DNA of 7,051 bases from a virus (lineage: Duplodnaviria; Heunggongvirae; Uroviricota; Caudoviricetes): IMG/VR virus record IMGVR_UViG_2600254997_000007; one strand, 5' to 3'. Shown one piece after another: positions 3,901 through 4,325 of the stretch (position 1 is its first letter; the number at the start of each line of letters is the position of its first letter). The notes under the pieces were generated by a model that was not told the origin of the DNA, made no database searches, and saw nothing but the letters and a program-made list of their open reading frames with translations. A program made the position numbers and the translations under genes.

Positions 3901-4060
3901 GTATCTGAACCAGCAGGCGGACTTCCGACGGATTCCGGTCCCCCTTTGAGGTGGTTTCCACCAGTGCCTGCACACCGAAAGTAAAACGCAGACGATCAAT
4001 GTTTGCCGACGTGATGGTCCGGGTGATCGGCGTGTCGTATTTCACTTCCGTACCCAGCAC
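911..4060 (-). CDS. J: Tail tip / host-specificity protein J (central tail fibre), major C-terminal reading frame, 1049 codons. The frame stays open upstream to a TAG at 4088-4090; the true N-terminus is in ORF 4080..4325 in another frame.
   Basis: Translation ([63 protein letters not shown]...) is collinear with lambda gpJ from memory. Position directly downstream of I and upstream of lom matches the lambda map. The tool's start is a GTG at 4058-4060 and is probably not the biological start. Confidence 0.9.
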
Positions 4061-4079
4061 CGTCTCAGAGCCGGAGGAT

Positions 4080-4325
4080 TCAAATCCCTACCGGCGGAGT
4101 CTGCTCCTGCTCACCGGCCCGGAACACCACCGTGACACCGGAGATGATGGTATTACCCTCACTGTCCAGCACCGGCGTACTGTTCAGCAGCACGCTTTTT
4201 AATCCATCCACCGGACCGTCAATCGGCCCTTCGCTGATGGCATCAATCACACTCAGCAACTGCGTGGATTTGAGGTTGTCCTTCGCTTCGCGCGGGGTAT
4301 GCCCCTTACTGCTGCCTTTACCCAT
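4080..4325 (-). CDS. J: N-terminal 81-codon fragment of J, separated from the rest of J by a frameshift.
   Basis: Translation [54 protein letters not shown]...AGEQEQTPP matches the lambda gpJ N-terminus as I recall it, then hits TGA after ...PPVGI. RBS GGAG/GAGGA lies just upstream of the ATG at 4323-4325. Confidence 0.8.

Follow-up and report, generated by a model that had tools for sequence, protein, structure and literature searches.

A single inserted base divides tail-tip gene J on a draft contig from a lambdoid prophage of enteropathogenic Escherichia coli E851/71

Gene J of the lambdoid prophage examined here carries one extra base, and the insertion splits the gene into a short N-terminal open reading frame (ORF) and a long body in another frame. 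We put at roughly 60% the reading that this is a recent, private inactivating mutation in J of a lambdoid prophage of the enteropathogenic E. coli (EPEC) strain E851/71. The window, by which we mean the whole stretch of DNA that was analysed, is the complete 7,051-bp contig ALNX01000076.1 of the draft assembly GCA_000754045.1, and ALNX00000000 corresponds to E. coli E851/71, an EPEC strain (PMC3897749). On the preferred reading the lesion would be recent and private to E851/71 or to this copy of J, with the rest of J intact. We infer both the presence of the base in the DNA of the cell and the tail-less phenotype described below, the sole evidence for the base being one draft contig.

The interrupted J gene

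The contig is a lambda-type tail-tip module on the minus strand that runs from the end of H through M, L, K, I and J to lom (Table 1). All of its genes are full length except J and lom, with H additionally cut by the end of the contig, and the Pfam families found are as expected. E2348/69 and several NCTC genomes encode an I protein identical to that of the window. At the other end of the module lom is cut as well, by ISEc13; homology to intact lom stops at window position 362, and the truncation lies at about codon 162-167 of some 199. The insertion sequence (IS) is 99.2% identical to the ISEc13 copies in E2348/69 and the contig ends within it, with the result that repeats, H on one side and ISEc13 on the other, bound the contig on both sides.

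Table 1. Coordinates of the features of the window (position 1 is its first letter)
Feature	Coordinates	Strand	Remarks
ISEc13 (IS4-family) end, transposase C-terminus	1..375	+	Tn5-type dimerisation domain
lom, truncated by IS, 167 codons	338..841	-	Pfam profile positions 1-162 of 199
J body, +1 frame	911..4087	-	open after TAG (4090-4088), stop at 913-911
Patch of raised divergence from sister prophages, 403 nt	3816..4218	-	surrounds the frameshift
J N-terminal ORF, 81 codons, ATG start	4080..4325	-	ORF table and translation
Inserted base, frameshift at J codon 79	4090..4090	-	reads T on the minus (coding) strand and A on the plus
Private change A to T, Asn60 to Ile (N60I)	4147..4147	-	57 nt upstream of the insertion
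I (tail assembly), intact, 213 codons	4386..5027	-	Lambda_tail_I
K, intact, 247 codons	4925..5668	-	JAB and NlpC/P60 domains
L, intact, 232 codons	5674..6372	-	ORF table and Pfam
M, intact, 109 codons	6382..6711	-	ORF table and Pfam
H (tape measure) 3' end, cut by contig end	6711..7051	-	synteny with annotated relatives; no Pfam match

The identity of J is clear in spite of the break. Six of six gpJ Pfam families were found above cut-off in the 1049-aa body, as the series FNIII-A_GpJ, Phage-tail_3, Ig_J, Ig_J_second, Phage_Tail_Tip and Ig_GpJ_C, and the first 488 residues of J (with the N-terminus repaired) match the solved lambda gpJ 8IYK with E = 0, a value also obtained to the lambda gpJ chain 9E7M. 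J stands after H-M-L-K-I and before lom, which is the operon position of lambda gpJ. It is therefore like lambda gpJ, the TipJ central tail fibre, in gene order (H-M-L-K-I-J-lom) and in having all six gpJ domains, and unlike it in a frame that is broken at codon 79, in the private N60I change and in a different receptor-binding end. With the T removed, the closest named allele is the 1137-aa J of an E2348/69 prophage (WP_000515449.1), at 98.7% nucleotide identity; the two differ at 45 nt, the codons affected comprise 30 synonymous and 11 non-synonymous ones, and no further stop or indel separates them. Since the codons that diverge from E2348/69 are mostly synonymous, J appears to have been under selection until recently.

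We aligned the site with E2348/69, Z1323HEC0475 and phage 434, a check that the earlier note had proposed, and the window proved to have a single T more, placed after CCGG and before AGGG. On the minus strand all relatives have CCGGAGGG at this point and the window has CCGG-T-AGGG; CCGGTAGGG in the window against CCGGAGGG in the relatives amounts to a one-base insertion (the sequence around the frameshift is ...GAGCAGGAGCAGACTCCGCCGGTAGGGATTTGAATCC..., and a longer stretch over it is ...GAGCAGGAGCAGACTCCGCCGGTAGGGATTTGAATCCTCC...). That note had placed one extra T near 4089-4090, and the alignment to relatives fixes the exact base at 4090. Its further statement that the T lies outside any homopolymer holds for the same pair of sequences. 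The division of J into ORFs of 81 and 1049 codons, also claimed there, is confirmed by the ORF table, which contains both, and by their translations, which agree.

The shorter ORF, whose translation starts MGKGSS, consists of 78 J-aligned residues (N60I among them) followed by V-G-I and the TGA at 4082-4080. On its upstream side the frame of the J body is shut by the TAG at 4090-4088, and its first start codon is a GTG at 4060, which gives an ORF of 1049 aa from 4060 to 911. Deleting base 4090 produces a J ORF of 1137 aa without an internal stop, the length of J in both E2348/69 and Z1323HEC0475. In place of an uninterrupted J ORF of about 1130-1140 codons, then, the window has a gene split at codon 79, and since the gene is restored only by deleting base 4090, the J of the window is a disrupted copy, be it a pseudogene or an error, and not a functional member of the gpJ family.

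Distribution of the insertion among J genes and prophages

The extra base was found in 0 of the 94 other J alleles compared, among which two seeming exceptions proved to be an alignment effect of the in-frame variant GAAGGTTTT. An exact-sequence lookup of both ORFs in an index that covers 153 billion gene positions, among them those of Logan assemblies made from public sequencing runs, placed them on no other contig. When 5,426 complete E. coli genomes were searched with a 71-nt probe centred on the site, the best match was 97.2% over 70 bases, and because it spans 70 bases the T is absent from every complete-genome match; the best matches to a 501-nt probe in complete E. coli genomes span 500 bases. 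Exact-pattern scans for the insertion gave 0 hits in IMG/VR and 0 in the JGI metagenome contigs, and a 32-mer over the insertion gave 0 matches in the GTDB representative genomes. A 21-mer over it gave one match in the GTDB representatives, in the Opitutae MAG CAIUWA010000022.1 (L005 692-712), which we rejected as a second instance: the sequence is unrelated, and 0.27 chance matches are expected. Also rejected were the IMG/VR loci L018-L020, for which a listed identity of 100% is a rounding effect; Asn60 is present in them, and their nucleotide identity is about 95-97%.

A sister prophage locus, L013 in GCA_901482685.1, has an intact J of 1137 aa. It is 99.8% identical to the window from 5785 to 1, with 18 differences, namely 17 substitutions and the inserted T, and across K-I-J-lom the insertion is the sole indel against both L013 and E2348/69. 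Since it is absent from the 94 other alleles and is the sole indel in about 5.8 kb against L013, the extra base in the J of the window is not a chance effect. L013 is like the window in its identical I protein and in having the same lom(167 aa)::ISEc13 junction, with the alignment running straight through the junction, and unlike it in its intact J and in an M-L region of the other mosaic type. As the same junction occurs in L013, the lom::ISEc13 insertion is, to judge from the sequences, older than the split between the E851/71 and GCA_901482685.1 strains.

The window has a mosaic joint at about 5785-5800. The end of H, M and L (about 5785-7051) are about 99% identical to the Z1323HEC0475 prophage and 62-89% identical to E2348/69, and K, I, J and lom (below about 5785) are of the E2348/69/L013 type, at 99-99.8%. 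The chromosome that holds L013 has a second copy of L-K-I-J-lom, L012, the two lying at 2.88 Mb (L012) and 3.43 Mb (L013); they differ at about ten sites, and the IS is in the lom of one copy only. A repeat of the L012/L013 type would collapse in short-read drafts. The window matches L012 at 1808 and 1003-974 and L013 at the lom::IS junction, and the median number of J-like places per complete E. coli genome is 2.

The earlier note had also held that J homologues naturally arranged in two ORFs would speak against a lesion. With the 81-aa fragment as query, 241 short proteins from the N-terminus of J were retrieved, many of them on chromosome-size contigs. The frameshifts in these fragments are spread over different positions, and several of the fragments end at the TGA that also ends the short ORF of the window; the proteins P0037 and P0075 end in ...GGI at that TGA, and P0041 is an example of a 93-aa class. 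The J of the window is like these other frameshifted E. coli J genes in having an N-terminal fragment (70-140 aa in theirs) with the rest in another frame. Unlike it, they have their frameshifts elsewhere, mostly private to one assembly, and none has this insertion. The split of the window did not recur in independent, otherwise intact phages: both of its ORFs are unique to this contig, and the other fragments are mostly singletons at other positions. Two short-fragment J genes that we examined were each broken into three or more pieces. In L098 (GCA_045583225.1) and L099 (GCA_900448385.1), both chromosome-scale assemblies, J lies in 3 to 6 ORFs, and L098 has broken H, L and lom genes as well, a state that has the look of indel errors in the assembly and not of biology.

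Public assemblies contain many broken J genes, and no conserved two-ORF J emerged from the search, the other splits being mostly private and scattered. Because broken J genes are common, because none shares this insertion and because there is no conserved two-ORF J, what we see in the window is an ordinary lesion, private to this contig, in a gene that is very well known, or else an error in a draft contig; it brings no new biology, and its place is in the annotation, as 'J, frameshifted'.

The divergent patch and the status of the base

Half of the differences from L013 (9 of 18) fall within the patch at 3816..4218, a clustering for which a scan permutation gave p of about 1e-4. Seven of these nine are polymorphisms that also occur in other J alleles, and in the patch they alternate with states of the E2348/69 type. 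The remaining two, the +T at 4090 and the A to T at 4147, are private to the window, and at 4147 the base is A in 94 of the 94 other J alleles. All seven polymorphic patch states occur together in four loci, where the states interleave at distances down to 3 nt. Either recombination made the patch a mosaic or assembly made it a chimera.

It is possible, though we would bet against it, that the extra T (and perhaps N60I too) is a consensus or assembly artefact that came from collapsed or chimeric near-identical J copies or from low coverage. Material for a collapse is at hand, since the window is a short draft contig (7,051 bp) with repeats (H and ISEc13) at both ends, a related chromosome has two K-I-J-lom copies about ten sites apart, J-like places number a median of 2 per genome, and the window resembles L012 at 1808 and 1003-974 and L013 where lom meets the IS; a chimera of intact copies, however, cannot contain a base that is absent from all alleles. 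The clustering of half of the differences round the frameshift, the interleaving of states between allele types at 3-nt spacing and the 57 nt that separate the two private changes would likewise fit an artefact, but seven of the nine patch differences are genuine J allele polymorphisms, so the patch is mostly real sequence. Neither ORF is reproduced by another assembly in the gene-position index, a further point in favour of an artefact. Against it, no homopolymer accompanies the insertion, indel errors relative to the 99.8%-identical L013 are absent from the remainder of the contig, and, whatever the platform, insertions in a consensus are rare when coverage is normal. The absence of a homopolymer-type indel in 5.8 kb aligned at >99% also argues against a consensus that is error-prone in general. 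The earlier note had thought an artefact less likely because no homopolymer is present; the observation stands, with the caveat that the draft contig and the module duplicated in related genomes keep an assembly or consensus artefact alive as a rival.

A further reading, which we entertain only tentatively and with less confidence than the artefact, is that the mutation is real and either arose in, or was gene-converted from, a second, decaying J copy in another resident prophage, with the frameshift and N60I arriving together in a short recombination tract. The patch is a significant cluster of differences in which known J polymorphisms are joined by two private, deleterious-looking changes, yet no donor haplotype for 4218..3816 was found among the alleles compared, the nearest being the E2348/69 type with 9 differences. 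Lambdoid tail modules in these genomes are mosaic, and the window itself switches from Z1323-like to E2348/69-like at about 5800. On the other side, the four loci with all seven states have 15-17 further differences within the patch. Such a conversion is a sub-case of the private inactivating mutation that we prefer, and not another outcome for J.

Expected effect on the tail and the question of bypass

If J of E851/71 does carry the private inactivating mutation, a single T inserted after codon 78, translation from the J start would end three codons on at the TGA, and the remaining 1,056 J codons would be left without an adequate start of their own. [quoted passage not shown] Tail assembly in siphophages starts from an initiator complex made up of TMP, Dit and Tal, which in lambda are H, M and J (PMC7291167), and we infer that the 81-residue product cannot serve in this complex. 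The trimeric J hub and central fibre would then not be made, the H-M-J initiator complex would not form, and there would be no tails. The earlier note had predicted 'no adsorption-competent tails'; since J (Tal) together with H and M starts tail assembly, the expectation probably goes beyond this, to no tails at all.

We think it very unlikely that the frameshift is bypassed and the prophage is partly functional, either through a +1 slip at AUU-UGA, which would give a full-length J with E79V and F81I, or through re-initiation at GTG 4060, which would give a two-piece J. Re-initiation has some features on its side: GTG 4060 is only 20 nt past the stop, and the lambda hub is already divided between gpL and gpJ, with the break in the window near a domain boundary (PMC10721106). 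However, GTG 4060, besides which no start codon lies near the beginning of the J body frame, is almost without a Shine-Dalgarno (SD) sequence, and a two-piece J would lack residues 79-88. The predicted anti-SD duplex at this GTG is only -2.7 kcal/mol, as opposed to -6.8 at the J ATG, so poor independent translation of the J body is expected. Independent initiation of the 1049-codon ORF at GTG 4060 was likewise judged unlikely, given its very weak SD.

The case for slippage comes from the reading of frame 0, GUA GGG AUU UGA A, where +1 slippage of the P-site tRNA, AUU to UUU, leads precisely into the body frame, with an SD-like GGUAGGG just upstream (-6.2 kcal/mol) and a UGA stop as in prfB (PMC13245932). 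The prfB site itself consists of AGGGGG, a UAU spacer, CUU UGA and C as the fourth base (PMC13245932). The window is like this RF2 site in having UGA after an NUU codon, a +1 slip to UUU and a G-rich SD-like element upstream. The resemblance does not extend much further: AUU UGA in the window is not the shifty stop CUU UGA of prfB; GGUAGGG abuts the AUU with no UAU spacer, whereas prfB has a 3-nt spacer; the SD-like duplex is -6.2 kcal/mol as against -10.6; and the fourth base after UGA is A rather than the C that makes the weak stop context of prfB. In addition, tRNA-Ile (anticodon GAU) re-pairs with UUU at only two of three positions. Conservation of the prfB type is missing too, with the frameshift in 0 of the 94 other J alleles and in none of the pattern scans, and since the insertion is conserved in no homologue, it is not a selected recoding signal. 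Programmed +1 recoding of the prfB kind was rejected on these grounds, as four of its five elements are absent or differ in the window and only the UGA is shared. Slippage to -1, of the lambda G/GT type, was ruled out because the J body lies in the +1 frame and not in the -1 frame.

More improbable still is that the chance insertion made a leaky shifty stop, GGUAGGG-AUU-UGA, at which a few ribosomes slip +1 and produce full-length J (E79V, F81I). Were this true, a few infectious particles could still be released, as three J copies per virion suffice, and a structural gene of a phage would contain an accidental, new counterpart of the RF2 recoding site.

Returning to the private inactivating mutation, if the base is real, one lambdoid prophage of E851/71, a historical EPEC volunteer-challenge strain, would be a tail-less, defective and non-transmissible element; its J should be annotated as a frameshifted pseudogene, and would be a data point on the speed of prophage tail-gene decay. 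If the base is an artefact, the outcome is a small correction to a draft assembly. Either outcome leaves knowledge of J, of tail assembly and of recoding unchanged.

Some smaller features of the region can be added. The receptor-binding end of J (window 911-1420, minus strand) does not align with that of lambda; phage cdtI and Stx-converting phages (Stx1a, Stx2c and others) match it at about 98% identity. A GC-rich hairpin with a T run follows J at about 862-889 on the minus strand (ggcaccagaaatggtgcctttttt). Another such hairpin and T run, aaccgcctgcgggcggtttt, lies between I and J at about 4345-4366 on the same strand; its counterpart in the record of phage 434 (L003 337-356) is annotated as a terminator.
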